Notes: generated by a model not told the origin, from the sequence alone. A DNA stretch of 64,000 nucleotides from an uncultured Gammaproteobacteria bacterium (GCA_963831765.1 CAWHRH010000002.1:905210-969209), one strand, 5' to 3'; counted from the stretch's first letter, positions 1,886-60,842 are shown. A program made the numbers and translations.

Positions 1886-2896
1886 ATGAAAATTCAATCA
1901 TCCGCCGGGCTTATCCTGCTCCTGCTCATCGGGGCTGACTTGGCTGCTTGCTCATCGATCCCCGAGCCCAAGATGCTCGTTGCCACCAGCGCCAACCAGC
2001 AGCAGGTGCGAGCGCTCGCCGGAAAGACCGGTGCGGTGGCGGATGTCTTGACGATCAATGGCGAGGAGCATTATTTCGTTATCGGTCCCTCCGCGGACGG
2101 CACTCTGGGCGGTCAACGCCTCAATCCCGCGGCTGGGCGCACGATCCCCGACGAAGAGGTGACCGAGCCTTTCGAGAATCTCGCGATCGTCTACTACCTC
2201 GAGCAACCCAAGAAGACACACGCTCCCGTACCCGGATACGAGGAGCGGCGGAAGGTGCCAAACAAGTACGCCTATCCGAAGCTACCGACACCCGGGACGC
2301 TGGAACAGGGGCTCTCCTGCGATGCGCTCAGCGTGGATCTCGCGCGCGCTGAAGCCGTGCGCTGGTTCGCGCGAAACGAAGGGGCGATGGGCTACACGGA
2401 GCCGCAGGCGGCCCTGCGTCATGTGACGAATGCCGCCGAGTACACCGCCATCACCGCCTTGGTCGTGCTCGCGGTCGCGGCGGGCGGCTACGTGCCCAAT
2501 TTCTCGCCTGCGCCACCGCCCGATCCGAACCGCAGCCTCAAGTCGCAGATCGGCGAAGAGAATCTGCGCTGGGCGATCACGCACGCGGATGCAAGAATCG
2601 TCGATCTTCTCAAGCTGCGGCGCGACAAGGGATGTACAGAGCAGCCCACGCTGGTCGATGGGAACGGCGATTTGCAGAATCTCGCAGCACTCGATGGCCT
2701 CGCTCACGACCCCACCGCCCTGCACATGTCGGCCGATGCAAGGATGCACGAGAAAACGCGCCTGCTCGACGAGCTTGGTCCCTTGCCGCTGCCCGAGGGG
2801 AGCAATCACGCCTGCGCCGCGTTGTTCCAGTGCCCCGTGAAAGCTTCGCCCTTGGCGTCCACGGCGGCCGCCGACAAAGCGTCGACAGAACCCTAG
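1886..2896 (+). CDS. hypothetical lipoprotein
   Basis: Single 336-aa ORF. Signal peptide with lipobox (LLLLIGADLAAC-SS). No family recognised. Confidence 0.55.
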   Translation: MKIQSSAGLILLLLIGADLAACSSIPEPKMLVATSANQQQVRALAGKTGAVADVLTINGEEHYFVIGPSADGTLGGQRLNPAAGRTIPDEEVTEPFENLAIVYYLEQPKKTHAPVPGYEERRKVPNKYAYPKLPTPGTLEQGLSCDALSVDLARAEAVRWFARNEGAMGYTEPQAALRHVTNAAEYTAITALVVLAVAAGGYVPNFSPAPPPDPNRSLKSQIGEENLRWAITHADARIVDLLKLRRDKGCTEQPTLVDGNGDLQNLAALDGLAHDPTALHMSADARMHEKTRLLDELGPLPLPEGSNHACAALFQCPVKASPLASTAAADKASTEP

Positions 2897-3519
2897 TCGA
2901 AATCCGTCGGCAGCTCCGCGTGCTCGTGATGCTGGAACATTCTCTCGATCTGCGCCGCCGTTGTTCGCCCCAGCGACAGCGGCGGCAGATCATCGCGCGG
3001 GAAAAAATCGACCTCGCTGGTCTCGTCGCTGGCGCGGGCCGCGCCGCCGTTGATCTCGCACAGGAAGAACATCTTATAGATCGAGTCGATGTGACGGGGC
3101 GGGTGGCCGCTCCTTTGATAATCATAGACTGCCGCGAGCTTGAGAACCCTGGCCGTGAATCCCGACTCCTCGGTTATTTCCCGCGCGACGCATTCGCCGG
3201 CCGATTGATTGACATCGGCCCAGCCGCCGGGAAGCGTCCACATGCCGTCGCTGAGTTCTCGGACCATCAAAATCCGGCCATCGATGAAGGCGGCGCCGCG
3301 CACATCCACTTTGGGTGTGGCATAACCCTTCTCCTGCCGCATCAATTCAAGGAGCGAATCGAAGTCGGCGGCCGATCCCTGCGCCAGCAGCAACGCGGCC
3401 AACTCGCGCACCCGCTCGTAGCGTCGCCGGTCGAAGCCGTCTGCTGTGAAGGTCAGGCCGGTTTGCGCAATGGCCCGCAGTTCGCGTGCGATGCTCAGCC
3501 ATCGCGGCTCTTGCGTCAT
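2893..3519 (-). CDS. NUDIX hydrolase
   Basis: Single 208-aa ORF. Nudix box GGWADVNQSAGECVAREITEESGF. Last gene of a tightly spaced minus-strand run. Confidence 0.8.
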   Translation of the reverse strand: MTQEPRWLSIARELRAIAQTGLTFTADGFDRRRYERVRELAALLLAQGSAADFDSLLELMRQEKGYATPKVDVRGAAFIDGRILMVRELSDGMWTLPGGWADVNQSAGECVAREITEESGFTARVLKLAAVYDYQRSGHPPRHIDSIYKMFFLCEINGGAARASDETSEVDFFPRDDLPPLSLGRTTAAQIERMFQHHEHAELPTDFD

Positions 3520-3532
3520 CGCCGCGGCGCCT

Positions 3533-3916
3533 TCAGCGCGGCGCGAAGAATTCGGTGTACGTCACGATGTGCTCGGGGGTCAGCTGCACAACATCGACGA
3601 GCTCGGTCGGTACCGTGACGCCGGTGACCTTGGAATAGATGTCCGCGCGCCAATGTGCCACAGCTCGCGGCCACTCGACGACCAGGCTGAGTAACTGATA
3701 GTTGCCGATGCGAAAGACCTTGACCATCATCGCGAGCCAGGGACGAAATTCGGGAAGATTGTTCGCTCGAATGGCTATCGATTTGTCGGCGCTCGCGCCC
3801 AGGATTTCGAAGCGGCCATCAGCCGCAAAGACCCGGCACATGCCCGCCAGATCGCCGGCAACACGGGCCGCATGCAGCTGTTGAATGAGCTTTTCCGCAA
3901 TGATGCGCTCGGACAC
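3533..3916 (-). CDS. SnoaL-like / NTF2-fold protein
   Basis: Single 127-aa ORF. Size and N-terminal pattern (LIQQLHAARVAGDLAGMCRVFAADGRFE) are typical of SnoaL/NTF2-like proteins. 13 nt upstream of the NUDIX gene. Confidence 0.5.
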   Translation of the reverse strand: MSERIIAEKLIQQLHAARVAGDLAGMCRVFAADGRFEILGASADKSIAIRANNLPEFRPWLAMMVKVFRIGNYQLLSLVVEWPRAVAHWRADIYSKVTGVTVPTELVDVVQLTPEHIVTYTEFFAPR

Positions 3917-3928
3917 GTTATCTCCTTC

Positions 3929-4861
3929 TCAGGTCATCAGCGCGGCGCGAATCTCGCCGCCGATCTGTTCAAATGCTGTGCGCGCATAGGGAATGATGGC
4001 TCCCAATCCATAGAAAAGATGGATCATACCTGGATGGCAAGTGTAGGACACTTCGTTGCGCGCTTGGGCCAGGCGCTCGAAATAATTTCGTCCCTCGTCG
4101 CGCAGTGGATCGAATTCGGCGGTATGAATGAGCGTTCGGGGCAGGCCGGTCACATCGTCGGCACGAAGGGGTGATACCAGCGGGTCCGCGGGATCCGTCC
4201 CCGGGGGCAGGTAGTGCATGAGATCGTGATCCAGAGTGGCTTCATCGACAAGGAACCCGCTTGCCAGTTCGCGCCGCGACGGCGTCAGTCGGCTGTAGTC
4301 GAGAATGGGGCAGATCAAAAGCTGCAGCTTGAGCGGCGGGCCGCCGATCCGCGCCGCTTGGGCTGTCGCGGCCGCCAGCGTGGCGCCGGCCGAGTCTCCG
4401 CATATGCCGATGCGCGACGCATCGATGGCGAAATCCGCGGCATTCGCGCTGATGTGCCGTAGCGCGGCCATGGCATCATCCAGTGCCGCGGGAAAGGGGT
4501 GCTCCGGCGCCAGCCGATATTCAACCGAGATGACGCGTGCGCCGCTGCAATTGGCGAGTGCGCGTGCGATCGAGTCATGTGTCGTCAAACTGCCGGCAAC
4601 CAATCCGCCGCCGTGAAAGTAGAGCAGCGCGGCCGGCATTCCAGATGCATTCGCCGGCGAGTACAGCCGCACCGGCAGTGCGCCTCCCGGTCCCGGCAAT
4701 GAACGATCTTCCGTCGCGCCGATCGGCTCGGCGGGACCTGCCAGTTTCATCAGTGCTGCGAGGCCTGTACGTCGCTGCTCGACGGTGGCGCTGCGCGCAT
4801 CGGGAGGGTTGCCGGCGGCGAGAAGATCCAGAAAGCGCTTGACGCGCGGGTCGAGCGGCAC
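3929..4861 (-). CDS. alpha/beta hydrolase, hormone-sensitive-lipase-type esterase
   Basis: Single 310-aa ORF. HGGG oxyanion motif (LLYFHGGGLVAGS) and GDSAG nucleophile motif (ICGDSAGATLAA). Confidence 0.8.
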   Translation of the reverse strand: MPLDPRVKRFLDLLAAGNPPDARSATVEQRRTGLAALMKLAGPAEPIGATEDRSLPGPGGALPVRLYSPANASGMPAALLYFHGGGLVAGSLTTHDSIARALANCSGARVISVEYRLAPEHPFPAALDDAMAALRHISANAADFAIDASRIGICGDSAGATLAAATAQAARIGGPPLKLQLLICPILDYSRLTPSRRELASGFLVDEATLDHDLMHYLPPGTDPADPLVSPLRADDVTGLPRTLIHTAEFDPLRDEGRNYFERLAQARNEVSYTCHPGMIHLFYGLGAIIPYARTAFEQIGGEIRAALMT

Positions 4862-4879
4862 GTCCGGCGCCTGCTAAGT

Positions 4880-5793
4880 CTAAAGGGCCAACGCCTGCCG
4901 AGTCGCCGCCGGCCACTTTCCCAGGTCCAAGCCATGATTTGCGAATAACGCCACTGCCAGCCGATCGATGCCGAAGGCGACGCAACTGGTGTGCGCCAAC
5001 TCGCCCTTGTCGTCATGAATGCCCCAAACGTTTCCGAAATGCTCGCGGTGATAGTTGAAGCTCATGCAGGCGGTGGGCGACGCGCCCGGGTAATAAGGGA
5101 TCAACAGCTCGAATTTCAGCGCCTGCTGCCGCTGGCTGACGGCCATCACCTGGCCCACTCTGCCGAAAAACGGATCGTTTGCAACATCGATGGTGTGCGG
5201 CAGCCCGAGTTCAGCTGCCAGAATCGGGGCCTTCGCCATCCATTTCTCGCGAAAATCCACGATTTCCTCAGGCGCACCGATTCTCACGAATTCGCGCATG
5301 CGGAATGATTGCAGCCGATCGAGACTCTGCGACGGCTCGTGTCTGAACACATCGGCTTCGATGTCGAACTGCAACCCGCCGCGCGGCAGTTTGCCGCGTG
5401 CCGCGACGATCGGATACACCGGATAGCACGCCGCCGGCGACAGCACGAGGTCCGATGATGTCAGTGACGTGGTCCAGTCGCCGCCGCTGTCGTGGCGCTC
5501 CACCGCCGATCGGATCGAAGCTTCCGAGCCGTGCAAGGGCGCAGACGCAACCGAGCAGATTGGGGAAACTCTTGAGATACCCGGATTTTTCAAGCTGGGT
5601 ACGGCTCATCACGGGCGGGAAGCGCATGATTTCCGCCTTGGGGTCGCGTTGCCGCGTGATGTATTGTTCGAGGCGCTCGACCAGGTCCACATACAGCGAG
5701 GTGCGCGCATAGACGCCATCGACACCCATGCGGCTTGAAAAGCCGATCAGTCAGATGCGCGAGCGGGTATTGCGATGTGCCGTCGGGAGACAT
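4880..5793 (-). pseudogene. amino acid:[carrier protein] ligase (truncated seryl-tRNA-synthetase homologue), two frame breaks as assembled
   Basis: Joined from minus-strand track ORFs 5590..5808 (MSPDGTSQYPLAHLTDRLFKP), 5268..5729 (GVDGVYARTSLY...SGYLKSFPNLLGCVCAL) and 4880..5593 (HGSEASIRS... to stop). ATG 5793 is preceded by GAGGG. Class II aaRS core elements: FRHE, FRMREF, SCVAFGIDRLAVAL. About 304 aa, with no N-terminal tRNA-binding arm. Confidence 0.75.
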
Positions 5794-5800
5794 GGTGCCC

Positions 5801-7010
5801 TCAACCACTGATCGAAGTTGGCAACGGCGTCATGAGCGACGTCGTGGCGAGATTGGAAAGAATGCGATCGTTGCTGATCATGATCGGCGCCGAGAGCACA
5901 TCGCGAAGCAATCTGCCGATGGTGAACTCGGTGTCGTTGCGGTAGCCCGACAGGCCGCAGGCGCGCAGCGAACTCAACACGGTGGTTACCGCCAGCTCCG
6001 AAACCTGCACTTTCGTCAGTGTGATCATCGCCTGAAACTCCAAGGACGAAATCGCCTTCTCGTCGCCCATGATGGTCTCGTAATTGCGCAGATTGGCGGC
6101 CAGCACGCCGCGCAAAGTGCGCAACTGCGATACCGCCTGAGTGAAGTGCGCCGCGCCGGGCGGCATCTGGCCGTTGGACTGGCGCACGACGTGGCGAATG
6201 AAGCCTTGAGCCTTCGCGGCAGCCGCGGCGGCGATTCCCGCCCACACCGAACCCCACAGAAGGTGAGCGAACGGCACCATGGTTTGCGCGTGGATTCTCT
6301 CGTACGGTTCGGGCAGGAGCTGGCCGGCCGCGGCGCGTGCGCGCAGGGTGAATCCCTCGCTATGTGTGCCGCGCATGCCGAGCGTATCCCACACCTGCAG
6401 TCGTTCGAGCGTGTAATCCGCTTTCAGCAGCACCAGCAAAACCTGGTCATTGCCCGCGGCATCGGCCGCGCGCCGCGCCGTGGTCACGATCCCGTCCGCT
6501 TCCACCGCATAGGATATGACGGTAGCCTTGCGTTCGAGGGTCACCTGCCCGCCGTCGTGTTCGACCGCCGCTTCGCTCGAGCGGACGTTGCCGCCGGCCT
6601 GGCCCTCGGTGGTGGAGGACGCCATGAGCAATTGCTCCGCGGCGATCCGGCGCAGCACGCGTTCGAGAACGGCAGCATTCTTGTAGTGACGCACGATGCA
6701 CGCGATCTTGATCTGGTGCATGGCGTAGATCAGGGCGGTCGACGAACACGCCTGTCCCAGGATGTAGCATACGTCCGCGATTTCTCGCGATGGTGGCGCC
6801 TTCGCCGTCCAGGGCTTGCGGAACCTGGATGCCGAGTAGCCGCTGCTTGCGAAGTTCCGCGAATGCCTCGCTCGGAAAACGGGCTTCCGCGTCCACCGCC
6901 GAGGCGTTGGCGCGGGCCACGTCGGCCGCGGCACGGGCGCGCGCCGTCAAGTCGCTCTGGCGAGCGCTGGGTACACGCGATCCGGGTATTCGATGAGACT
7001 CTACTGACAT
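5801..7010 (-). pseudogene. acyl-CoA dehydrogenase-family flavoprotein, one frame break
   Basis: N-terminus from track ORF 6447..7010 (MSVESHRIP...FAELRKQRLLGIQVPQALDGEGATIA), remainder from 5801..6934 (REIADVCYILGQACSSTALIYAMHQ... to stop). The stop lies 7 nt before the ligase ATG. Confidence 0.75.
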
Positions 7011-7078
7011 GCTTGGGTGCCCTTCTTTGAAGTCCCTATGGGCAAGACCGGGGGATTATGCGGGCCCCAGAGCGCCCG

Positions 7079-7107
7079 AACAATAACTGGGACGTCAAAT
7101 TATTGTT
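7079..7107. promoter_or_regulatory. AT-rich inverted repeat AACAATAA-N13-TTATTGTT in the divergent ACAD-like / ACP intergenic region (candidate operator)
   Basis: Arms at 7079..7086 and 7100..7107 are perfect reverse complements. The spacer contains GACGTC. It is conspicuous in an otherwise GC-rich window. Confidence 0.3.
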
Positions 7108-7217
7108 ACTTAGTGACGCCTGACTCAATTTCTGAAACATATGTAAAACCTTGCATGTATTCCGTATCCTGCGCTACACGGTATGATCGGTCCCGTTTTT
7201 CTTCGGAGAATCATCGA

Positions 7218-7493
7218 GTGGAGCAGCAGACGCAGGAGGAGGTGAGCGATCGATTGATCGCGCTCGTAAAGGCCGTGCTGGGCGCAGGCAGCGCTATTCC
7301 GGCCCCATTTCCGTTGGATGCTCAACTCAGCGACTTGGGGATAAGTTCCTTGAAGATGGTCAATCTCATGCTGGCAGTCGAACTGGAGTTCGATATTGCC
7401 ATTGCGCAGACCGACATCACGCCGGAGAATTTCCATTCGTTGGAGTCGATCGAGACTCTGGTCACGCGCACCTTGAAGCAACGCAACAATTAG
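7218..7493 (+). CDS. stand-alone acyl/peptidyl carrier protein
   Basis: GTG at 7218 inside track ORF 7017..7493, with GGAGA 8 nt upstream. 91 aa. Phosphopantetheine-attachment-type motif DLGISSLKMVNL. Its stop overlaps the convergent decarboxylase stop. Confidence 0.7.
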   Translation: MEQQTQEEVSDRLIALVKAVLGAGSAIPAPFPLDAQLSDLGISSLKMVNLMLAVELEFDIAIAQTDITPENFHSLESIETLVTRTLKQRNN

Positions 7494-8915
7494 GCGGGCG
7501 CTTCCCGCTCATTGAGCGCGGCCACCAGGGCGTTCACGTCTTCCAATCTGGTTTCGCCGTTGGTGGCGCAGATCCGCACCACCTCTTGACCTTCAAACAG
7601 GGTGGGCGCAACCCAGGCTCGACCTGAGGCCACCACTCGGCGCACCAAAGCCCGCGCGTCTCCCAGTTCAGCGGGCGGAACTGCCGCAAGCACCGCCAGC
7701 GGCGAGTCGTTCGCAATGCGCCAGCCTGAGGCGAGCAGCCGCTCTTTGATGCGCTCGATGATCTCGACGCCGCGATCAACGTGCGCCCCCAGTCCCTCCC
7801 AACCCGCAGCAGCCAACGTCAGGAACAAGCGCAGTCCCAGGAACCGCCGCGACCACTGCACGCTGTTGAGGTAGGGATCGACGCCGGAAATGCTCGACGG
7901 CATGAAACTCGTGGAGGCGTGAAAGGCTTGCGACAGCAGATCGGCGCGCCGGGTGATGAAGAGGGCGCATCCCATCGTCGTCGCCGGCCATTTATGCGCA
8001 TCGATGGTGAGCGAATCGGCGCGTTCGATGCCGTCAAGCACGCCGCGCAGGCGATTCGATGCCAGCGCGGCGCCGCCCCAGGCCGCGTCGACGTGCAGCC
8101 AAAGATCCTGCCGGCGCGCAATATCCGCGCAGGCGTGCAAGGGATCGATCATGCCGCCGCCAGTGGTTCCCGCGGTCGCGACGATCATCACGGGAATGGC
8201 GCCCGCGGCGCGGTCCTCGGCAATGACTCGCAGCAGTGCGGCCGGATCCATGCGCCCGTGCCCGTCGGTATCTACCAAACGCAACGCGCCGCGGCCGACG
8301 CCCGCCTGGTGCGCTATTTTCAGCCAGGCGATGTGGCAGTCGCGGGATGTATAGAACTTGACCGGACCTGTAAAGGCGCGTACACCGTCGGCGGAGAAAT
8401 TGGCATGGGCCGCCGTCAATGCGCAGAGCAGCGCTGTGTAGTTCGCCTCGGACCCACCGGTGGCGAAATGCCCGCCGGCTTCCTCGCCGAATCCGGCGCG
8501 GCGCGCCACCGCTCGAATGACATGACTTTCCAGAGCAACCGGTACGGGCGAGGAGGCCGAGCTTGCGAGCTGCGGATTGAACGATCCCGCAATACGGTCC
8601 GCGCATTGCGAGGGGAAATTGGCGCCGGGATTGAACAGCCCAAAGTAGCGCGGATTGGACATTTGCACGATGCCGTATTGCATGCGCTCGATGGTCCAGC
8701 GCAAGGACTCTTCCAGCGGATCGTGGCGCGCTGAAATCGAAGCCATCGAGTTCCGTCCGGAACTTTTGCATGTCGATGGTGGGTACCACAGATCCGGATT
8801 GAACGCGCAGCATCGCCGCCTGCAGCTCGTCGGTCAGCCAGTCCGAGATCCGCTCCCGGTCGGAAGACGGCGGGAATAACGCCGGGATGGCTTCCGGCAA
8901 CGTCCGTTGATTCAC
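7490..8915 (-). pseudogene. group II pyridoxal-phosphate-dependent decarboxylase, one frame break
   Basis: N-terminus from track ORF 8034..8915 (MNQRTLPEAIP...TELDGFDF), remainder from 7490..8746. TGGSEANY segment and PLP-lysine context LTIDAHKW. GTG start at 8915 overlaps the upstream stop (GTGA). Confidence 0.7.
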
Positions 8916-10186
8916 GCTGCCGCGCCGAGCGCTTGATCCAGGTCGGCGAGGATGTCATCGATGTGTTCGATGCCCACGCTCAAGCGAATGCTGCCGGGTC
9001 CCACCCCGGCGGCAAGCTGTTCCTCCGCCGTCATCTGTCGATGCGTGGTCGACGCCGGATGACAGGCCAGGGACTTCGCGTCGCCCAGGTTGACCAAGCG
9101 CTTGAACAGCTTGAGCGAATTGTAGAATTTCATTCCCGCCGGCAGGCCGCCGCGTATTTCGAATGTCATCAGCGAGCACGCCTTACCGCCGAGATACTTC
9201 TGCACCAGGGGATAGTAGGGATTGTCGGGAAATCCCGCGAAGTTCACCGATTCGACGCGCGTATCGGCGCGCAGGAAGTCGGCAACCTTGAGCGCATTTT
9301 CGACATGCCGCTCGATGCGCAGCGCCACCGTCTCGATGCCCTGCAGCAGCAGAAACGCATTCATCGGCGCCAGCACCGCGCCCATGGTGCGTTGATAGAC
9401 GCTGCGGCAGCGGCCGATGAAGGCGGCGGCGCCGTAGTGCTCGCTGTAGACCAGGCCGTGATACGACTCATCGGGCTGCGTGAACATGGGGTAGCGAGCC
9501 GCATGCTCGGTCCATGGAAACCGGCCGCAATCGACGATGATGCCGCCGAGCGTGGTGCCGTGGCCTCCCATGAATTTGGTCAGCGAATGCACGACGATGT
9601 CCGCGCCATATTCGACCGGCCGCACCAGCATCGGCGTCGCCACCGTGTTATCGACGATCAGCGGCATGCGGTGACGATGCGCCACTTTGGCGAGCGCTTC
9701 GAGGTCGCACACGTTGCCGGCAGGATTGCCGACGGTTTCGCAGAATATCGCGCGCGTGTTCTCATCGATCAGCGCTTCCAAATCCGCGGCGCGGTCGGAT
9801 TTGGCGAATCGCACCGAGATCCCCATCTTCGGAAAAATATGCGCGAAGAGCGTGTACGTCGTGCCGTAAAGCTGCGGAACGGATACGAGATTGCGGCCCA
9901 TCTCCAAGGCATTCATCGCAGCGAAGTAAAGCGCGGTCTGTCCCGAGCTCACGCTCAGTGCGCCCAATCCGCCTTCCAGTTCACAGACCCGCGCCTCGAG
10001 AACCTCCAACGTCGGATTGCTGATCCGGGTGTATCGAAAACCCGGAATCTCGAGGTTGAACAATGCCGCGCCATGCTCGGCGCTGTCGAAGGAATACGCA
10101 GCCGTCTGATAGATCGGGACAGCGACAGCCTTGGTGGTAGGGTCCGAGTCGAAGCCCCCATGAATTGCGATGGTTTCCCGCTTCAT
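8912..10186 (-). CDS. metY: O-acetylhomoserine sulfhydrylase / aminocarboxypropyltransferase family (MetY-like) PLP enzyme
   Basis: Single 424-aa ORF. Cys/Met-metabolism PLP family throughout (IHGGFDSDPTTKAVAVPIYQTAAY, HSLTKFMGGHGTTLGG). Confidence 0.8.
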   Translation of the reverse strand: MKRETIAIHGGFDSDPTTKAVAVPIYQTAAYSFDSAEHGAALFNLEIPGFRYTRISNPTLEVLEARVCELEGGLGALSVSSGQTALYFAAMNALEMGRNLVSVPQLYGTTYTLFAHIFPKMGISVRFAKSDRAADLEALIDENTRAIFCETVGNPAGNVCDLEALAKVAHRHRMPLIVDNTVATPMLVRPVEYGADIVVHSLTKFMGGHGTTLGGIIVDCGRFPWTEHAARYPMFTQPDESYHGLVYSEHYGAAAFIGRCRSVYQRTMGAVLAPMNAFLLLQGIETVALRIERHVENALKVADFLRADTRVESVNFAGFPDNPYYPLVQKYLGGKACSLMTFEIRGGLPAGMKFYNSLKLFKRLVNLGDAKSLACHPASTTHRQMTAEEQLAAGVGPGSIRLSVGIEHIDDILADLDQALGAAA

Positions 10187-10228
10187 TCCTGCAGATTTTC
10201 GTGAGCTGAGAATCCTAGTGTATCTCGA

Positions 10229-12055
10229 ATGATGCGGGTAGTCGTGGTATGGTTCGCAATTGTGACGCAGCCCCGCGCCGTCGATTCAAAATTCGCTCGC
10301 GACGCCTGGCTGAGAGCGCTGGGAAAAACGGCAACCATTGGCGATCGTGGAGAGACGTTGCCGGTGCTGATTGATCGTCTGGCCGGCGAATTCGATGCCG
10401 CGCCGGCGTTGCTCTCCGTCGAAACCTCCATGACTTACCGCCAGTTGGCGCATCGCGCCAACCAGTATTCGCGTTGGGGTGCCGCGCACGAACTTGGTCC
10501 AGGCGATGCCGTGGCACTGATGATGTCAAACTGCGCTGAATATGTCGCGCTGTGGCTGGGGCTGACGCGCATCGGCGCGGTGGTTGCGCTGATCAACTCG
10601 CAGCTCGCGGGCGACGTGCTGGCGCATTCAATCAACATCGTGCATCCCAAGGCATTGCTCGTGGGAGCGGATCTCGCGCCGCGGGTCGCCGCAATCCGCG
10701 CGCGGCTGCCGGCCGGCCTGCTGTGCGCGGTCCATGGATCAAGCATCGAGAACTTCGCGCCGCTGGATCCGGAACTTGCCGGGATTTCGGGAACGCGATT
10801 GGATGTATCGGAACACGCAGCGCCGCCGATCGATGCCACCGCTCTTTACATCTACACCTCCGGCACCACCGGATTGCCGAAGGCAGCCAAGGTGAGTCAT
10901 TACCGGCTCATGCAGTGGAGCCATTGGTTTGCCGGCATGATGGATACCAAACCCAGCGATCGGATGTTCAACTGTCTGCCTCTCTATCACAGCGTTGGCG
11001 GCGTGGTGGCGACCTTCGCAACGCTGGTTGGCGGCGGCTCCGTGGTGATCCGGCCCCGGTTCTCCGCTTCCGACTTTTGGCGCGACGTGCGCGATGAACG
11101 CTGCACTCTGTTTCAGTACATCGGCGAGCTTTGCCGCTACCTGGTCAATTCGCCGCCGCAGGCAATCGAGACCGAACACTCGCTGCGGATGGCCTGCGGC
11201 AACGGGTTGCGACCGGAGGTGTGGCTGCCTTTCCAGGAGCGCTTTCGAATTCCTCGAATTCTCGAGTACTACGCCTCCACCGAAGGTAATTTTTCCTTCT
11301 ACAACTGCGAAGGCCAGCCCGGCGCCATCGGCCGCATCCCACCTTTTCTGGGCAATCGACTCCCCGTGGCGCTGCTGCGATTCGATATCGAAAAATCCGA
11401 AGCCTGGCGCAATGCCGACGGGTTCTGCGAACCCTGCGCAACAAACGAGATTGGTGAAGCTGTCGGCCTCATGCCGGCAGAGGGGGGCCAGCGGGCGGGA
11501 CGATTCGAGGGCTACGCTGATCCCGAGGCGTCGGCTCGCAAGGTACTGCGCAACGTCTTCAAGGAAGGAGACATGTGGTATCGCACGGGCGACTTGATGC
11601 GGCGGGATGAACGGGGCTTCTATTATTTCGTCGATCGTGTCGGAGACACCTACCGTTGGAAAGGCGAGAATGTGTCGACTGCGGAGGTACTCACCGCGCT
11701 CACCGCCAGCCGCGGCGTGCTCGACGGGGTGGTGTACGGCGTCGAGGTTCCAGGCGCCGATGGACGTGCCGGCACCGCGGCGCTCCTGGTCAATGATGGG
11801 TTTGATCTGGCAGCGTTTCGAGCCGAGGTCAGCGCGCGTCTGCCGCCTTATGCGCGCCCGGTATTCTTGCGCATTCTGACCACGCTCGAGGCGACGGGGA
11901 CTTTCAAGCCGCGCAAGCAAGATCTCGTGCAGGCGGGGTTTGACCCCGGCCGCATGACCGATCCTCTCTATTTTGACGATCCGCGATCGCAGCGTTACGT
12001 GCCTCTGGATGCGGCGCTGTTCGCCGCGATCTTGAGCGGACGCGTGCGGATCTGA
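10229..12055 (+). CDS. FATP / very-long-chain-type acyl-CoA synthetase (acyl-adenylate-forming ligase)
   Basis: Single 608-aa ORF. AMP-binding motifs YIYTSGTTGLPKAAKVSH and YRTGDLMRRDERGFYYFVDRVGDTYRWKGENVS. The true start may be the in-frame GTG at 10262. Confidence 0.8.
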   Translation: MMRVVVVWFAIVTQPRAVDSKFARDAWLRALGKTATIGDRGETLPVLIDRLAGEFDAAPALLSVETSMTYRQLAHRANQYSRWGAAHELGPGDAVALMMSNCAEYVALWLGLTRIGAVVALINSQLAGDVLAHSINIVHPKALLVGADLAPRVAAIRARLPAGLLCAVHGSSIENFAPLDPELAGISGTRLDVSEHAAPPIDATALYIYTSGTTGLPKAAKVSHYRLMQWSHWFAGMMDTKPSDRMFNCLPLYHSVGGVVATFATLVGGGSVVIRPRFSASDFWRDVRDERCTLFQYIGELCRYLVNSPPQAIETEHSLRMACGNGLRPEVWLPFQERFRIPRILEYYASTEGNFSFYNCEGQPGAIGRIPPFLGNRLPVALLRFDIEKSEAWRNADGFCEPCATNEIGEAVGLMPAEGGQRAGRFEGYADPEASARKVLRNVFKEGDMWYRTGDLMRRDERGFYYFVDRVGDTYRWKGENVSTAEVLTALTASRGVLDGVVYGVEVPGADGRAGTAALLVNDGFDLAAFRAEVSARLPPYARPVFLRILTTLEATGTFKPRKQDLVQAGFDPGRMTDPLYFDDPRSQRYVPLDAALFAAILSGRVRI

Positions 12056-12056
12056 T

Positions 12057-12075
12057 GGTAACCCGTTCGGTTACC
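12057..12075. terminator. short hairpin GGTAACC-cgttc-GGTTACC between convergent genes
   Basis: 7-bp perfect stem directly after the ligase stop (12055) and before the minus-strand stop (12090). No clear U-tract. Confidence 0.25.
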
Positions 12076-12089
12076 CCGAGGCCTTAGGA

Positions 12090-14420
12090 TCAGTACGTGG
12101 CCAAGTTCACCGTGTCGGCAACATCGTCGATTTCGAAGGCAACCGGTACGGCGACCACCGGCACGCGATCCTTGCCCTCGAGCCACTTCTCGAGCGCTTC
12201 GCGGGTCATGGGCTTCGCGTAGAGGTAGCCTTGCGCATTGTCGCAACGGAACTCGCGCAGCAGATTCGCCGACGCCTCGGTCTCGATGCCCTCGGCCACC
12301 ACCTTCAGCCCCAAACCATGTCCCATATCGATGGCCGAGCGGACCACCGTCGCGAACTCGGGGTCGGACTCCAGGCCCTGTATGAAGCTGCGGTCGATTT
12401 TCACCTCGTGGACCGGCATGCGGGCGAGATGGCTCAGCGAGGAATAACCGGTGCCGAAGTCATCGATCGACAAACACACGCCCAACGCTGCCAAGGCGTC
12501 CAGCACCCGCAGCGCGCGGGTCGGATCCTCGATGAAGCCGCTTTCCGTAACCTCCAGGGTGAGGAGCGCCGGCGGGAATTGATGACGGCTCAACAGCGAC
12601 GCCACGCGTGAATCCAAGCGCACATCGGCAATATCCTCGGCGCTGATATTGACAGCCAGACTCAGCGGCCTGCCGGCGCGTTGCCATTCCGCGCCTTGGG
12701 CGATCGCATGATCCAGGGTCCAGCGCGTCAAACGTCGAATGAATCCGGTTTGTTCGGCGAACGGGATGAAGTCCGCGGGAGACAGCAGACCTCGTTTGGG
12801 GTGCTGCCAGCGTAACAGCACCTCGGCACCGGCGATGCGATTTGTGGCCAGTTCGATCTTCGGCTGAAAGTACAAGCGCATCTCGTCGTGCTCGACCGCA
12901 TGTCCCAGCTCACCCAACAATGAGAGCTGATCGCGGGCGGCCGGCTTGAGAGCTTCTTCGTAGATCGCGAGCGCGCGCTTTTCGCGGCGCGCACTCTCCA
13001 GGGCGAGGTCCGCACAGCGCATCAGTTCATCTGCGAACACGTTGTTGCCGGTCGCCATCGCCAAACCCAGTGTCGGGCTGATGTCGATGGGCTGGGCTTC
13101 CACATAAATGGGATCGGCCAGCGCCACCAACAGCGACGTACCCCATGCGTGAAGTCCGCCGCGATCGCCGACACGAGTGAACGCCGCAAACTGATCAGCC
13201 GCCAGCCGTGCCACCGAAGAGTTGACGGACGGCACGGCCGCAATGCGGGCGGCAATTTTGGTGAGCACCGCGTCGCCGACCGAATACCCCAGATGTTCAT
13301 TGATGCGGCGAAAGCGATGCAAATTGATGACCACGACGCCGACACCCGAGTCTTCGGTATCCTTCAAGGCAACACTCAGCGCAGCACCGAATGCCGTGCG
13401 ATTCATGACCCCGGTCAGGGCGTCTTCATATGCCAGGCGCCGGATGGATTGATCCCGGGATTGGACCGCCGTCTGCATCAGGTGCAGTCCTTCGGCCAGC
13501 ACGCCCAGTTCGTCGCGCCGCTGGACGATTTGCGCTGCGTCGTAACTGCCGGCGCGCATCTTGTCGACCACCCGGGTCAAATCCCGCAAGGGCCGCGTAA
13601 TGTTGCGCGCCAGCCAGAAAGCAGCCAGGGCAAAGGCGACCAAGCTCACGGCCGCGATCACGAACAAGGCCTTCGTCAAGCGCTCGAACGGAGCGCGCGC
13701 TTCCGCCAGCGAGCGCGATAGAACCGCGACGACCTCGGTGTCGCCTACCTTGGACAGCTCCATTCGTCGCGTGACCGTGTCCGCGGCGGGAAGGCCGCCT
13801 TCCGGCAGCGTGCTGACGACATTCGTCCAATGTCCCGCGGAGTTCAGCGAGAGGGTTACATACAGGCCGGTGATATCTGCCAGCTCACGGGCGGCTTTGC
13901 TGTCAAGCTCGAAACCCATGGCAATCCACGCCACGGGCAGCGGACTGCGCACCGGCACCGTCACGAACTGATAGAGACGTCCGCCATCCATCATCATGGT
14001 GGTGGCGCTGTCCTTGGCGCCGGCGGTATCCTCAAAACTTGCGATGGGAAAGGGCGCGCCTGCCGCGAGATGTGTGCCGGAGGCGGCAATCACCTCACCG
14101 TCGAGCGAGATGAGCACCACCATCGCGGCCCCAATGCGTTCACCGCTGTTTTCCAGCGCGGAAGCCAGAGTGCCGGTATCGTGCGCCGCAACCGCCTCAC
14201 GAAACCCGTAGTCTGCGGCAACTGCTTGCGCTGCCTGGGTCAGCTGCTTGCGATTGCTTTCCAGCAAGCGCGAGAATACCAGCGCGCCGACATCGAGCTG
14301 CCGTTTGACTTCCCGCCCCGCACTGTCGCGGTTCGTCGCCAGCACGGCACCGAGCGCCGCGGCCAGCACGGCAGCAAGCAACAGCAAAAAAGTAACCGCA
14401 ATTCGGGTTCGCAGCGCCAA
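12090..14420 (-). CDS. membrane sensor protein with HAMP, degenerate GGDEF and EAL domains (probable c-di-GMP phosphodiesterase)
   Basis: Single 776-aa ORF. N-terminal TM plus periplasmic region and a second TM. HAMP (RNITRPLRDLTRVVDKM). GGDEF signature replaced by LAADQF. EAL domain with EVLLRW and DDFGTGYSS. Confidence 0.85.
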   Translation of the reverse strand: MALRTRIAVTFLLLLAAVLAAALGAVLATNRDSAGREVKRQLDVGALVFSRLLESNRKQLTQAAQAVAADYGFREAVAAHDTGTLASALENSGERIGAAMVVLISLDGEVIAASGTHLAAGAPFPIASFEDTAGAKDSATTMMMDGGRLYQFVTVPVRSPLPVAWIAMGFELDSKAARELADITGLYVTLSLNSAGHWTNVVSTLPEGGLPAADTVTRRMELSKVGDTEVVAVLSRSLAEARAPFERLTKALFVIAAVSLVAFALAAFWLARNITRPLRDLTRVVDKMRAGSYDAAQIVQRRDELGVLAEGLHLMQTAVQSRDQSIRRLAYEDALTGVMNRTAFGAALSVALKDTEDSGVGVVVINLHRFRRINEHLGYSVGDAVLTKIAARIAAVPSVNSSVARLAADQFAAFTRVGDRGGLHAWGTSLLVALADPIYVEAQPIDISPTLGLAMATGNNVFADELMRCADLALESARREKRALAIYEEALKPAARDQLSLLGELGHAVEHDEMRLYFQPKIELATNRIAGAEVLLRWQHPKRGLLSPADFIPFAEQTGFIRRLTRWTLDHAIAQGAEWQRAGRPLSLAVNISAEDIADVRLDSRVASLLSRHQFPPALLTLEVTESGFIEDPTRALRVLDALAALGVCLSIDDFGTGYSSLSHLARMPVHEVKIDRSFIQGLESDPEFATVVRSAIDMGHGLGLKVVAEGIETEASANLLREFRCDNAQGYLYAKPMTREALEKWLEGKDRVPVVAVPVAFEIDDVADTVNLATY

Positions 14421-14568: not shown

Positions 14569-16374
14569 ATGCCCATCGTTCGCCTCGAAAAAGTCAGCTT
14601 GAGCTTCGGTCTGAAACCCCTGTTGGACGACGTCGGTCTGCAGCTGCGCAAGACTGAGCGCGTATGTCTTCTGGGCCGCAACGGCGAAGGAAAATCTTCC
14701 CTGTTGCGCATCATTTCGCGCGAGCTTCCACCCGACAGCGGCGAGGTATGGGTTCGGCCGGGGGCGCGCATCGCAAGCCTCGCGCAGGAGGTTTCGCCCA
14801 CCAGCGATACGCGGGTGCGCGATGTGGTGCGTGACGGGGTGCTTGCCAGGACGCCGGAAGAGGACTGGCAGGCGCAACTGCAGGTCGATCAGGTCATGTC
14901 GCGTCTGGGGCTCGATGGCGATGCGCTGATGAGCACCTTGTCCGGCGGTTGGCGCAGGCGCGTCATGCTGGGCCGCGCGCTGGCCGGCGCTCCCGACATA
15001 TTGCTCTTGGATGAACCGACCAATCATCTCGATATCGACGCCATCAGCTGGCTCGAGAATATGATGCTCGATTTCGCCGGGGCCCTGTTTTTCGTCAGCC
15101 ATGACCGCGCCTTTGTCCGCCGTCTGGCGACGCGGATCGTCGAACTCGATCGCGGCCAGCTACGCGTTTGGCCCGGCAGTTACGACGAATATGTTTTGCA
15201 GAAGCGAGCCGCGCTCGAGGTCGAGGCAAAACATGCGGCTTTGTTCGACAAGAAGCTGGCTCAGGAAGAGGCGTGGATTCGTCAGGGCGTGGAGGCGCGG
15301 CGCACGCGCAACGAGGGCAGGGTGCGGGCGCTCGAACAATTGCGATTGGAGCGCCGCGAGCGGCGCGAGCGGGCCGGAAATGTGTCGCTGCGGGCACAGG
15401 ATGCGGCGCCCTCAGGCAAATTGGTTTTCGAAGCGCAGCATGTAACCCATCGCTTCGATGGCGCTCCGATCATTGCGGACTTCTCCACTCGAATCATGCG
15501 CAAGGATCGCATCGGCATCATCGGACCCAATGGCTGCGGCAAGAGCACGCTGATCAAACTGCTGGTGGGCGAACTTGACGCCCACTGACGGGCTGATCAA
15601 GCGCGGCACCAACCTGGTGCCGGCGTATTTCGATCAGCAACGCGAACAACTCGATCCGACAGCATCCATCATGGACAACGTCACCGGCGGCAGCGGCGAC
15701 ACCGTGACCATCGATGGTCAAACACGCCATGTCTCCGGCTATCTGCGCGATTTCCTGTTTCCGCCGGAGCGGCTGAATGCACCGGTGAGCATGCTCTCGG
15801 GCGGGGAACGCAATCGGCTTCTGCTGGCGCGCCTGTTCGCACGACCCAGCAATCTATTGGTCATGGACGAGCCGACCAACGATCTTGACGCGGAAACCCT
15901 GGAACTTCTGGAGGAGCTGGTCGCGCAACTATGCGGGAACCTTGCTGCTGGTCAGTCACGATCGAGCACTTTCTCGACAATGTGGTCACCAGCACGCTGG
16001 TGTTCGAAGGCGCCGGCCGCGTTAACGGAGTACGTTGGCGGCTACAGCGATTGGCTGCGGCAGCGCAGAAGTATGCCCGCACCGATCGCCGCCGCTTCCC
16101 CGGCGCCGGCGAAAGCCGCCGCGCCCACGGCTGCGCGCGCCTGTCGTACAACGAACAGCGCGAGCTGGCGCAGCTGCCCGAGAGGATCCAGCACCTTGAG
16201 GCCGAGCAGGCACAGCTGCACTCACTGATCAGCGATCCGTCGATCTTCCAGCGGAACAAGGATCAGTCCACGGCTGCGCTGCAGCGCCTCCAGGTATTGA
16301 CGACGGAACTGGAGGCGGCCTATTCGCGGTGGGACGCGCTGGAATCATCCGCGAATTCGACGCCGCGCATCTAA
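14569..16374 (+). pseudogene. uup: ABC-F family ATPase (Uup-like), at least four frame changes
   Basis: ATG 14569 (MPIVRLEKVSLSFG) inside track ORF 14491..15588, then 15575..16228 and 15931..16374, with reading alternating between the last two. Walker A GRNGEGKSS and GPNGCGKST. Signatures LSGGWRRR and LSGGERNR. C-terminal coiled coil. Confidence 0.8.
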
Positions 16375-16888: not shown

Positions 16889-19423
16889 ATGGACGACCCT
16901 ACTGGGAATCGTTCTATTTGGGGCAGCCCTGTTCTTGCTCCACCATCTGCTCGGTCAATATCGATGGAGCGACATTCTGGCCCGCATGCGGGCGATTCCG
17001 AACGTGAAGCTGCTGCGCGCCGCTTTCTTCACCTGCGCCGGATACGGTTGCCTGACCCTGTATGACGCGCTTGCGGTGCGATTCGCCGGCGCGCGAGTGC
17101 CCTATCCGCGCATCGCCCTGATCTCGTTCATGGGCTATGCCGTCGGCCACAACGTCGGACTGAACTCCTTGAGCGGCGGCGCCGTTCGCTATCGCGCTTA
17201 CTCCGCCCTGGGCCTGAGCGCGAAACAGATCGCGACCATCATCGCGTTCGGCACGTTGACCTTTTTTCTCGGCGCGGGGGTGCTGCTCGGGCTGTCGTTG
17301 TTGTCGAACGCCGGATTGTCCGGCTCGGTGCTGCATGTTCACGCCTGGCTGGCCCTGGTTGCCGGCGCATTGCTGCTGGCGGGCGTTGCATCATACTTAT
17401 GGCTGGTGTGTACGCGCCATGCGCCTTTGCGGTTCCGGCACTTTCAAGTTCCGGTGCCGAAGCCGCGGGTCGCATTCGCGCAGATCGGCATCAGCTGCCT
17501 TGACATGCTGTGCGCTGCCGCGGTCTTGTATGTGCTTGCTCCCGCCGCAGGCGGCGCTCAGCTTCGCGGCCTTCGCCGGTGTGTACCTGCTCGCCCTGGC
17601 GGCGGGCGTGATCAGCAATGTTCCCGGCGGCATCGGCGTGTTCGAGTTCGTCCTGCTGCTGTTGTTGCCGAACGTGCCCCAGGATCGGTTGCTGGGCGCG
17701 CTGCTGGCTTACCGGGCCATCTACTACTTCGCGCCCTTCGCCGTGGCTCTCGTGCTTTTGGGGGTGCACGAACTCTGGGTGCATCGCGCGCCCGTGGTGC
17801 GCATGGCAACGCTGCTGCGGGCTTTTCTCACCGCAGTCACCCCGCAGGCCATCGCGATCGCGGTGTTTCTCGCCGGCGCGGTGCTGCTGTTCTCGGGCGC
17901 CACGCCGGCGCTCGGCAATCGCCTCGCGCTGCTGCGGGATTTCGTGCCGCTGCCGGTGCTGGAGTTGTCGCATTTGCTCGGCAGTGCGGTCGGGGTGGGC
18001 CTGCTGATCATCGCGCATGGATTGTATCGGCGACTGCACACCGCGTGGTGGCTGACGATCTGGCTGCTGTGCGCCGGCATCCTGTTGTCGCTGCTCAAGG
18101 GCTTCGACTACGAGGAGGCCTGCGTGCTCGCCGTCGTGGTTGTCATGCTGCTGTCGGCGCGCGCGCGTTTTCGGCGGCGCGCTTCGTCTGCTTGAGCAGC
18201 ATTTTTCCGCCGCGTGGATCGTGGCTTTTTTCGTGGTGCTGCTGACGGCGGGCTGGCTGGTGCTGTTCGCCTATCGGCACCTGCCCTACGACAACGAATT
18301 GTGGTGGCAATTCGCCTTTCAGGCCACGGCGCCGCGCAGCCTGCGCGCTTCGCTGCTGGCGGTCATGATTGCCGCAGCCTACGGCTTGTGGCGCGTGCTG
18401 CGGCCGGCGCCTCCGCGTTTCTCCGCGCCGCGCGCAGCGGATCTTGAGTGCGTCGCAGAATTGATAGAAAAAGGCGAGGACACCACGGCGAATCTGGCGC
18501 TGCTCGGCGACAAGAACCTGCTGTTCAACCACGAGCACAGCGCCTGCATCATGTTCCAAGCCTCGGGCAGCAGCTGGGTGGCGATGGGCGACCCCATCGG
18601 TCCGCCGGAACTCGGCGAGTCATTGGCCTGGAAATTCCTGGAGGATTGCGATTCGATGGCGGTTTCGCCGGTGTTCTACCAGGTCACGCCGGACCGCTTG
18701 CCGCTGTACGTCGACCTGGGTCTGAATTTGAGCAAGCTCGGCGAAGAGGCGCGGGTGCCGCTCGACAGTTTTTCCCTGGACGGGGCGGCACGCGCGGACC
18801 TGCGCCAGGCGCATCGGCGCGCAGGCCGCGACGGCGCTTCATTCGAGCTGATCGCCGCGTGGTGATGTGGCCCGACTGTTGCCGGAACTGCGCGCGGTCT
18901 CGGACGCCTGGCTCGCGGAGAAAAAGACCGCGGAGAAGCGGTTTTCCCTGGGTTTTTTCGACGAGCGCTATCTCGAGAACTTCGACGTGCGGCGTGGTCC
19001 GATGCAACGGGGCGGTGGTCGCCTTCGCCAACCTATGGCGCGGAGGCTCGTACCGAATTGTCGGTGGATCTCATGCGCTACAACCGCGCGGCACCGAAGG
19101 GCGTCGTCGATTTCATGCTGGTCGAGTGCATGCTGTGGGGCCAGAGCGCAGGGCTTCAAGTGGTTCAATTTGGGGATGGCGCCGCTCGTCCGGCCTGGAA
19201 GAACACGCTCTGGCTCCGGCCTGGCACAAGCTCGGGCGCATGGTGCAGCGCTACGGCGAAATGTTCTACAACTTCGAGGGTCTGCGCAAGTACAAGGAAA
19301 AATATCAGTCCGGTGTGGCGTCCGCGATATCTGGCCGCGCCGGATGGCCTGGCCATGGCCGGCGCTCTGCTCGATGTCACCGCGCTGATTTCCGGCGGCG
19401 TGCGCAAGGTGCTGCGAAAGTAA
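16889..19423 (+). pseudogene. mprF: MprF-like aminoacyl-phosphatidylglycerol synthase/flippase, at least eight frame changes
   Basis: Joined from track ORFs 16935..18245, 17335..18195, 18140..18865, 18867..19388, 18448..19434 and 19058..19423. Long polytopic N-terminal half. C-terminal synthase-type segments (SLGFFDERYL, FKWFNLGMAPL, FYNFEGLRKYKEKYQPVW). ATG 16889 is out of frame by one base with the downstream TM segment. Confidence 0.7.
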
Positions 19424-19430
19424 TCCGCCT

Positions 19431-47552: not shown

Positions 47553-50692
<3,140 letters not shown>

Positions 50693-60754: not shown

Positions 60755-60828
60755 GCGCCCGTAGCTCAGCTGGATAGAGCACCTGGCTTCGAACCAGGTG
60801 GTCGGCGGTTCGAATCCGTCCGGGCGCG
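60755..60828 (+). tRNA. tRNA-Arg, anticodon UCG
   Basis: 74-nt cloverleaf read by eye: acceptor GCGCCCG/CGGGCGC, D arm GCTC-AGCTGGATA-GAGC, anticodon stem CCTGG/CCAGG with loop CTTCGAA, T arm GGCGG-TTCGAAT-CCGTC, discriminator G. No encoded CCA. Confidence 0.9.
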
Positions 60829-60842
60829 CGCTAAAAATAAAA

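Follow-up and report, generated by a model that had tools for sequence, protein, structure and literature searches.

We analysed a stretch of 64,000 nucleotides from an uncultured Gammaproteobacteria bacterium (GCA_963831765.1 CAWHRH010000002.1:905210-969209; hereafter the window, with all coordinates counted from its first letter). It carries a cluster of nine genes around a ligase of the amino acid:[carrier protein] kind (aa:CP ligase) that resembles the catalytic core of seryl-tRNA synthetase (SerRS). The ligase is encoded next to a flavoprotein of the acyl-CoA dehydrogenase (ACAD) superfamily and near a stand-alone carrier protein, and comparison with relatives identified the triad of carrier, ACAD-fold flavoenzyme and ligase, rather than the pair of ligase and carrier, as the conserved unit. 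The predicted features of the cluster, which include enzymes dependent on pyridoxal phosphate (PLP), are the following.

2893..3519, minus strand: NUDIX hydrolase, 208 aa, with Nudix_N and NUDIX domains (list of open reading frames, Pfam); last gene of the minus-strand operon
3533..3916, minus strand: SnoaL_2/NTF2-like protein, 127 aa (Pfam, 27.5 bits against a cut-off of 27)
3929..4861, minus strand: HSL-type (family IV) alpha/beta serine hydrolase, Abhydrolase_3, 310 aa, with HGGG and GDSAG motifs
4880..5793, minus strand: amino acid:[carrier protein] ligase, SerRS-core class II, 303 aa after repair (NF005479)
5801..7010, minus strand: flavoprotein of the ACAD superfamily, repaired length 402 aa, separated by 7 nt from the ligase gene that follows
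7011..7217, no strand: intergenic stretch from which the ACAD-ligase operon and the carrier gene diverge (promoter and Rfam scans)
7218..7493, plus strand: stand-alone aminoacyl carrier protein, 91 aa from GTG 7218 (PP-binding, E 5e-7)
7490..8915, minus strand: group II PLP-dependent decarboxylase, 474 aa after repair (Pfam/NCBIfam)
8912..10186, minus strand: MetY-type, O-acetylhomoserine sulfhydrylase-like PLP gamma-replacement enzyme, 424 aa, intact (TIGR01326)
10229..12055, plus strand: FATP/FadD6-type long-chain acyl-adenylate/CoA ligase, 608 aa, intact (NF006134)

An earlier note, made from the sequence alone, had described these nine genes as an orphan carrier-protein pathway. Their positions, the spacing of 7-18 nt and a GTGA overlap were reproduced from the list of open reading frames (ORFs) and from three-frame translations, and the family assignment of every gene was upheld by Pfam and NCBIfam. 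The gaps in the minus-strand operon amount to 7, 18, 12 and 13 nt in the order ACAD, ligase, hydrolase, SnoaL and NUDIX, while the GTGA at 8912-8915 combines the stop codon of the MetY-like gene with the start codon of the decarboxylase gene. The carrier and decarboxylase genes converge and overlap by 4 nt, and the FATP-like and MetY-like genes diverge, with 42 nt between their start codons. Within the intergenic region 7011..7217 a single weak sigma-70-like match was found on the minus strand (7128-7099). Neither riboswitches nor other RNA families were detected within the cluster or next to it by Rfam scans at gathering level and with E up to 1, and thus no ligand is indicated by RNA. A lone tRNA-Arg (anticodon TCG) at 60755-60829 on the plus strand represents the sole tRNA and Rfam family in the window. 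The claim that no megasynthase is present also held: the window contains no ORF above ~800 aa and hence no nonribosomal peptide synthetase or polyketide synthase of this kind, although the domain scan was not exhaustive, and the stand-alone FATP-like ligase is the only adenylate-forming gene of the cluster.

The ligase reading frame had to be repaired before it could be compared, and the repaired protein scored 445.2 bits with NF005479, the model for amino acid--[acyl-carrier-protein] ligases (cut-off 357), as opposed to 57-73 bits with SerRS models, whose cut-offs lie at 490-611. It aligned over its full length and nearly without gaps to Bll0957 (PDB 3MEY; E 2e-137), while the methanogen-type SerRS 3W3S (527 aa) was matched solely over core residues 306-504. 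An N-terminal tRNA-binding arm is not present in the repaired 303 residues, a length that equals that of the intact orthologues. The earlier note had proposed a tRNA-independent SerRS-like ligase, and this assignment is supported by the profile scores, the missing arm and the restriction of SerRS similarity to the catalytic core: the protein would be a tRNA-independent, SerRS-core amino acid:carrier protein ligase. The translation of the window gene contains the motifs PAACYPVYP, FRMREFV and HTSCVAFG. Among 27 diverse family members, both cysteines of the Cys/Glu/Cys set were invariant and the glutamate was kept in at least 90%; we take these residues to be the active-site zinc ligands, equivalent to Cys131, Glu176 and Cys279 of Bll0957. 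The carrier-binding helix (GRVGQ...SQRQQALKF), a stretch that is altered in the variant entry 4H2W, is likewise close to that of Bll0957.

The closest ligases, with 82-90% amino-acid identity, come from soil metagenome-assembled genomes of Steroidobacteraceae and other Gammaproteobacteria, followed at 59-70% by those of Bradyrhizobium, Rhodopseudomonas, Methylocystis, Stellaceae, Xanthobacteraceae and Phenylobacterium. The family is large: at least 7,822 of the 8,000 candidates scored from a 90%-clustered protein collection matched with E <= 0.001, so that metagenomes alone hold over 7,800 near relatives, and an exhaustive search of 50%-identity representatives returned 2,302 clusters, 263 of them at E < 1e-30. 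Enzymes of this type reportedly load amino acids onto carrier proteins, as described by Mocibob and colleagues in 2010. Bll0957 prefers glycine according to a 2022 review (PMC9437257, citing Mocibob 2010/2013), in which the biological role and the downstream fate of the aa:CP ligase product are given as unknown. This agrees with what the earlier note had said about the fate of the aminoacyl carrier, and neither a later functional assignment of aa:CP ligases nor glycyl-carrier intermediates were found in the literature that we searched.

The carrier protein points in the same direction. Its best PDB match (4H2S; E 3.5e-17) was the cognate carrier of Bll0957, aminoacyl carrier protein 1 of B. 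japonicum, and the serine in its DLGISSL motif aligned with the serine of 4H2S. The start codon is uncertain: the ATG used by the relatives, which would give 100 aa, is lost by a 2-nt difference, and GTG 7218 yields 91 aa. In nearly all of 84 related loci, tblastn placed the carrier gene 2-3 kb upstream of the ligase gene and in divergent orientation. In four of these (L021-L024), a gene for a MetA/HTS homoserine O-acyltransferase lies on the same strand 7 nt upstream of the carrier gene, as at 7346-8617 of L021, which raises the question of whether the donor of MetA might be an acyl carrier rather than acyl-CoA.

That three cluster genes are broken was confirmed. The ligase gene contains two single-base insertions (at ~5733 and ~5534), and one each was found in the ACAD-like gene (~6785) and in the decarboxylase gene (~8717), so that four lesions fall into three genes within 3.2 kb; none of them lies in a homopolymer, as judged against L002. 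The JGI metagenome contigs L001-L004, which have the same gene order and 94.6% nucleotide identity to the window, carry intact versions of all genes (ACAD 395-402 aa, ligase 303, carrier 100, decarboxylase 474). When the window was compared with L002, the broken genes gave dN/dS values of 0.065-0.082, as against 0.01-0.24 for the intact neighbours. Damage is not confined to the cluster. Pfam tests on suspicious ORF pairs, which were used for the whole window as codon-bias and GC3 scans proved too noisy at 62% GC, revealed an MprF-like gene at 16935-19434 (plus strand) that is split over at least three frames, with its LPG_synthase_C domain distributed over two of them, and a GAF/PAS/HisKA/HATPase sensor kinase gene at 47553-49666 (plus strand) split over at least three overlapping frames. 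With the MprF-like gene the window has a second system that draws on activated amino acids, but nothing ties it to the cluster; the AT skew of -0.41 at 17-18 kb, where it lies, is consistent with a membrane domain. The four frameshifts most likely represent sequence or assembly errors or very recent lesions, since unrelated genes of the window are broken as well, orthologues with 95% nucleotide identity are undamaged and dN/dS is low. The low dN/dS implies that selection acted on the broken genes until very recently. A pseudogenised cluster was rejected in view of the frameshifts in unrelated genes and the low dN/dS, and we treat the broken genes as presumably functional in the lineage.

Next to the ligase-carrier pair, the gene with the tightest association is that of the ACAD-like protein. 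With the L002 proteins, 84 loci from genomes and metagenomes were compared by tblastn, and all called ORFs were also clustered without prior assumptions; counts are given for the 16 lineages that remained after dereplication at 80% ligase identity, with loci of at least 18 kb and ligase identities down to 59%. An ACAD-like gene lay directly upstream of the ligase gene in 16/16 lineages, and wherever the DNA of the 84 loci reached far enough, it occupied the same position, immediately upstream and on the same strand. The carrier was recorded in 13/16 lineages, which is an undercount due to reliance on ORFs. A MetY-like gene occurred within 10 kb of the ligase in 13/16, the HSL-type hydrolase and the FATP-like protein in 12/16 each, and SnoaL (after the hydrolase), the decarboxylase and MetA in 8/16 each; NUDIX was found in 2/16, both close relatives. 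This arrangement is far beyond chance, and it recurs in every related lineage that we sampled. The position of the MetY-like gene ranges from -6.7 to +9.7 kb relative to the ligase and its orientation is variable, while its proximity is retained, which argues for selection on linkage and not for inherited order alone. The divergent FATP-MetY pair is itself a conserved unit, present in the gammaproteobacterial and several alphaproteobacterial loci. Hence, the synteny expected by the earlier note is borne out for ACAD, carrier, MetY-like protein, FATP-like protein and hydrolase, holds in half of the lineages for SnoaL and decarboxylase, and fails for NUDIX, which is lineage-specific.

Several partners that recur in the relatives are absent from the whole 64-kb window. 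These are MetA, which in some loci is co-transcribed with the carrier at a distance of 7 nt; a second carrier together with an adenylating enzyme and a FabG-like short-chain dehydrogenase/reductase (SDR); a class IV aminotransferase, a thiamine pyrophosphate enzyme and a cupin; and a GNAT-like protein of 290 aa, encoded directly after the ligase in alphaproteobacterial clusters, whose profile found no match among PDB sequences even at E 10. In loci of the B. diazoefficiens type the triad adjoins the methionine-salvage genes MtnP/MtnA/HAD.

The triad is also kept in four distant loci, at 35-40% ligase identity, where it is accompanied by different genes. The order is phosphopantetheinyl transferase (PPTase), carrier, ACAD, ligase and DUF1839 in L085; ACAD, ligase and DUF1839 in L088; and carrier, ACAD, ligase and DsbA in L091. 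L087 encodes, in this order, a PPTase, one further protein, carrier, ACAD, ligase, thioester reductase, hydrolase, another further protein, formyltransferase and flavin reductase; thioester reductase, formyltransferase and flavin reductase of this locus would fit an N-hydroxy-N-formyl product. L089 (39% identity) combines PPTase, carrier and ligase with a large hydrolase, without an ACAD, inside a polysaccharide locus with glycosyltransferase and flippase genes. When a metagenome scan was seeded with the distant members, 80 further loci were obtained, 54 of which had an ACAD-like ORF and 61 a called ligase ORF. Two architectures dominate among these loci. Type A has carrier, ACAD, ligase, DUF1839, a GH2-like protein and a double alpha/beta hydrolase, and type B, to which the window belongs, has MetA, MetY, HSL hydrolase, SDR and an adenylating enzyme; the HSL hydrolase also occurs in distant type-B loci. 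Overall, the slot after the ligase is filled by varying candidates for an off-loading enzyme, namely HSL hydrolase, GNAT-like protein, DUF1839 or thioester reductase. In the type-A loci L161, L163, L167 and L171, two additional genes lie directly upstream of the carrier-ACAD-ligase-DUF1839 series (~4.0-6.1 kb in L161), which encode an EpmA/PoxA-like paralogue of class II aminoacyl-tRNA synthetases (tRNA-synt_2, 354 aa) and a radical SAM protein (350 aa).

The reaction that the ACAD-like protein may carry out was approached through profile comparisons. The Pfam N-terminal, middle and C-terminal ACAD domains were all matched, mostly below gathering scores. The best NCBIfam match was Rv1679/FadE16, at 84-108 bits against a cut-off of 600, followed by SfnB (5e-13), acryloyl-CoA reductase, 3-sulfinopropanoyl-CoA desulfinase (4e-10), DszC (3e-9) and PigA. 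The models for prolyl-carrier dehydrogenases were clearly missed, with 43 bits against 500 for PigA and 28 bits against 650 for RedW. A family profile searched against the PDB aligned over its full length to ACAD structures with E 2e-19 to 1e-14: entry 7P98 led with 2e-19, ordinary ACADs had 1e-14, DszC 2e-11, nitrososynthases 1e-10 and AnaB (4IRN) 2e-9, and methanesulfinate monooxygenase structures were matched as well. With the N-terminal and middle domains of a family member from a type-A locus, the nitrososynthase DnmZ ranked first among the structures (E 2e-13). Thus, the protein appears to represent an orphan clade rather than a canonical dehydrogenase, and by these comparisons it seems as close to ACAD-fold monooxygenases as to dehydrogenases.

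Both positions at which ACADs carry the catalytic base are non-acidic. In the conserved motif RDVLSAPIMI(S/N)NDRI, which also occurs in a member with 40% ligase identity, an invariant Ile takes the position of MCAD-Glu376 (the Glu of YEG), and the position of IVD-Glu254, used in AnaB-type enzymes, is occupied by Ala241, which adjoins an invariant His. The AMHQxK motif is likewise invariant, and it aligns with that part of the 7P98 sequence in which Asp91 lies, presumably the unusual catalytic base of that enzyme. Genes for flavin reductases (Flavin_Reduct) lie inside three related clusters (L075 2537-3088, L082 4836-5285 and L087 12177-12728), in L075 directly upstream of the ACAD-like gene. 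No flavin reductase gene was found in the window, and no genes for electron transfer flavoproteins were among the recurrent neighbour families that were annotated. Since glycine has no beta-carbon and both catalytic-base positions are non-acidic, oxidation at the alpha-amino group or alpha-carbon is favoured. Classical alpha,beta-dehydrogenation appears unlikely, and for glycine it is impossible; chemistry of the oxygenase type on the tethered amino group or alpha-carbon is somewhat more likely than dehydrogenation. The parallel to PltF/PltL/PltE drawn in the earlier note therefore stands for the architecture and probably not for the chemistry, given the non-acidic residues and a similarity that is oxygenase-like as much as dehydrogenase-like.

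Among the accessory proteins, the MetY-like enzyme exceeded the cut-off of TIGR01326 (586.8 bits against 495.1) and remained below the PRK06084 equivalog cut-off (635.6 against 790). The FATP-like protein passed NF006134 (699 bits, cut-off 625). It also matched NF005898/PRK07868, a model for acyl-CoA synthetases with 994 positions, in the C-terminal half of that model (467-985). We take this model to be that of M. tuberculosis Rv1683, an N-terminal lipase fused to an acyl-CoA synthetase that is encoded near Rv1679 (FadE16), and the Rv1683/Rv1679 region is possibly a distant echo of the gene set in the window. Structures nearest to the hydrolase were family IV esterases, and the protein is presumed to be a thioester-cleaving or off-loading enzyme. 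For the decarboxylase, assignment to the DABA, CSAD, GAD or aromatic type was considered and dropped, the protein being equally distant from all of them.

Taken together, we lean towards reading the locus as the Steroidobacteraceae-lineage copy of the Bll0957/Bll0958/Bsr0959 module, extended by accessory genes and operating in a sequence of loading, oxidation and off-loading. The zinc-dependent SerRS-core ligase would adenylate a small amino acid, most likely glycine, and attach it as a thioester to the carrier, whose gene is divergent, on the phosphopantetheine arm, which is strongly suggested by the characterised close homologue. The ACAD-fold flavoprotein, in keeping with its universal adjacency, would then modify the tethered aminoacyl group. 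For this second step, flavin-dependent N- or C-oxygenation is slightly favoured, C-N dehydrogenation to an imino or 2-oxoacyl thioester is a lesser though substantial option, and a PltE-like classical alpha,beta-dehydrogenation is less likely. From its position and recurrence, the HSL-type serine hydrolase would release or transfer the modified acyl group, and the SnoaL-like protein may process the released product. More tentatively, the MetY-type enzyme, the coupled decarboxylase and the FATP-type ligase might supply or consume a second building block with a link to homoserine and methionine metabolism, for instance an amine, a thiol or an acyl unit; many relatives encode MetA alongside MetY.

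A number of points weigh against this scheme. All steps past the loading of the carrier are ones that we infer, and the preference for glycine is extrapolated from the close homologue, so that the physiological substrate might be a non-proteinogenic amino acid. The best whole-length profile match of the ACAD-like family is a dehydrogenase (7P98), in-cluster flavin reductases occur in just 3 of ~170 loci and not in the window, and the AlphaFold2 model of the protein was unusable (pLDDT 40, based on 20 sequences with at least 86% identity). The loci were picked by ligase similarity and share common ancestry, and hence the lineage counts do not reflect independent events; moreover, NUDIX and decarboxylase are not universally retained. 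Finally, the MetY-like gene is extremely conserved (dN/dS 0.01), and MetY and MetA may belong to a housekeeping methionine pathway with a metabolic or regulatory link to the module instead of providing pathway enzymes.

A more far-reaching version of the load-oxidise-off-load scheme, which we regard as rather unlikely though worth stating, makes the ACAD-fold partner a flavin-dependent N-oxygenase that would convert the glycyl-S-carrier to an N-hydroxy-, oxime- or nitroso-acetyl thioester. If this were true, aa:CP ligase modules would constitute a widespread and unrecognised route to small molecules with N-O or N-N bonds in soil Proteobacteria, the product being joined to a partner derived from O-acylhomoserine (MetA/MetY, decarboxylase) or to a fatty-acyl partner (FATP) and released by the HSL-type hydrolase. 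Among the rival readings, one that we hold to be improbable is a transfer of the Dlt/Alm type, in which the glycyl-S-carrier serves as donor for the decoration of a lipid or polysaccharide and the FATP-like and ACAD-like proteins act on a lipid acceptor. The PPTase-carrier-ligase set of L089, lying without ACAD in its glycosyltransferase/flippase locus, would suit such a role, as would the GNAT-like 290-aa protein that directly follows the ligase in alphaproteobacterial clusters and the recurrence of FATP-like and second acyl-activating/ACP/FabG-like modules. Precedents exist in AlmEFG and DltABCD; DltA and AlmE are mentioned in PMC12930378. However, the cluster in the window contains no membrane-bound transferase resembling DltB or AlmG, its hydrolase is a soluble family IV esterase, and the tight and almost universal location of the ACAD-like gene beside the ligase gene would be hard to explain if its product acted elsewhere.

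An organosulfur or methionine pathway is doubtful to a similar degree. Here, an ACAD of the SfnB, DszC or desulfinase kind would act on the thioester of a sulfur-containing (amino)acyl group, MetA and MetY would recapture sulfide or methanethiol into homocysteine or methionine, and glycine activity in vitro would be a surrogate for the sulfur-containing physiological substrate. The recurrence of MetY-like and MetA (HTS) genes beside the module in differing arrangements could be understood in this way, and so could the NCBIfam matches to SfnB, 3-sulfinopropanoyl-CoA desulfinase and DszC and the matched structures of DszC and methanesulfinate monooxygenase; yet these matches are far below the family cut-offs and no better than those to ordinary ACADs. 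Likewise, the Bradyrhizobium module adjoins the MtnP/MtnA/HAD methionine-salvage genes, but this adjacency was seen in 1/16 lineages, a single closely related Bradyrhizobium lineage, and the preference of Bll0957 for glycine (Mocibob 2010/2013, cited by PMC9437257) also speaks against a sulfur-containing substrate. We consider it very improbable that only ligase and carrier belong together and that the remaining genes are chance neighbours in a cluster on its way to pseudogenes. The four frameshifts within 3.2 kb and the lack of NUDIX conservation outside close relatives might be taken that way. Against it stand the frameshifts in unrelated and far-off genes of the window, dN/dS values of the broken genes as low as those of their neighbours, the intact orthologues at 95% nucleotide identity, and the retention of ACAD, MetY, FATP and hydrolase across Gamma- and Alphaproteobacteria despite rearrangements.

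Some observations were made at the borders of the cluster. Around 12056-12090 the window cleanly lacks a gene for a 337-aa protein that L002 carries between the FATP-like and GGDEF/EAL genes (2715-3728), which amounts to a 1-kb indel; the extra protein of L002 looks secreted and has faint cytochrome c matches. In the gammaproteobacterial lineage the cluster is flanked by a gene for a dCache/HAMP/GGDEF/EAL protein (12090-14420, minus strand). The Bradyrhizobium triad, in L034/L036 and 12 other loci, is flanked by a PAS-GGDEF-EAL protein that is 36% identical and not an orthologue, and a c-di-GMP-I riboswitch was found in L023, 5 kb downstream (16085-16169). The cluster may thus have a recurring connection to c-di-GMP.

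Compared with known systems, DltABCD and AlmEFG resemble the locus in that a dedicated ligase loads D-Ala or Gly on a small carrier, which serves as donor for envelope polymers or lipid A. In contrast to the locus, DltA and AlmE are of the ANL type, membrane transferases are present and there is no ACAD-like enzyme. In the PltF/PltL/PltE, RedM/RedO/RedW, PigI/PigG/PigA and AnaC/AnaD/AnaB modules a stand-alone loader, a carrier and an ACAD flavoprotein are encoded together, as in the window, and tailoring is expected to take place on the tethered amino acid. However, the loader of these prolyl-carrier modules is an ANL adenylation domain, whereas the window employs a class II aminoacyl-tRNA synthetase core; in its ACAD-like protein, Ala stands in the place of the catalytic Glu of AnaB/IVD-type enzymes and the MCAD-type position holds Ile, and its probable substrate glycine is incapable of alpha,beta-dehydrogenation.

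The ACAD-fold monooxygenases DnmZ/ORF36/KijD3 and DszC/SfnB share with the window protein the lack of the catalytic Glu and a comparable degree of similarity, and flavin reductases are encoded in three related clusters; on the other hand, the window is without a flavin reductase gene and its matches are far below cut-offs. SgcC with SgcC2/SgcE6 provides an example of two-component hydroxylation on a carrier-tethered substrate. Valanimycin formation involves the decarboxylase VlmD, the ACAD-fold N-hydroxylase VlmH, the reductase VlmR, the SerRS paralogue VlmL and the seryl transferase VlmA. With its PLP decarboxylase, ACAD-fold flavoenzyme and SerRS-derived activator of an amino acid, this route to a small molecule is reminiscent of the window, although VlmL is a full SerRS that charges tRNA and the valanimycin route has no carrier protein; we note it as a lead and make no claim of membership.

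The closest system is formed by Bll0957 (glycine:[carrier protein] ligase 1), Bsr0959 (aminoacyl carrier protein 1) and Bll0958 of Bradyrhizobium japonicum/diazoefficiens (Mocibob et al. 2010, 2013; PDB 3MEY, 4H2S-4H2V). Its ligase is of the same family and length class and without tRNA arm, the Cys/Glu/Cys residues and the carrier-binding helix are kept, the best match of the window carrier is the cognate of Bll0957, and an ACAD-like gene directly upstream of the ligase gene and a divergent carrier gene are found in both. In B. diazoefficiens, bll0958 ('acd') is listed as acyl-CoA dehydrogenase and is upregulated together with bll0957 in a phaR mutant, the two being co-expressed as proteins (PMC10888616). 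The accessory genes differ: in the Bradyrhizobium module, of the L036 type, the ligase is followed by the GNAT-like 290-aa protein and methionine-salvage genes lie next to the carrier, whereas the window has HSL-type hydrolase, SnoaL-like protein, NUDIX, MetY-decarboxylase and FATP-like protein in a gammaproteobacterial, Steroidobacteraceae-like host. That ligase and carrier form a pair adjacent to bll0958 'acd' is already known, and the window adds a lineage-specific accessory set; in one major branch, homoserine chemistry of the MetA/MetY type and acyl activation of the FATP type accompany the module. There is nothing unusual about the locus itself; what gives it value is the comparison across lineages, by which the old question of the role of these ligases becomes open to experiments. 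For experiments, the window is not the best entry point, as cultured Bradyrhizobium carry the same triad.

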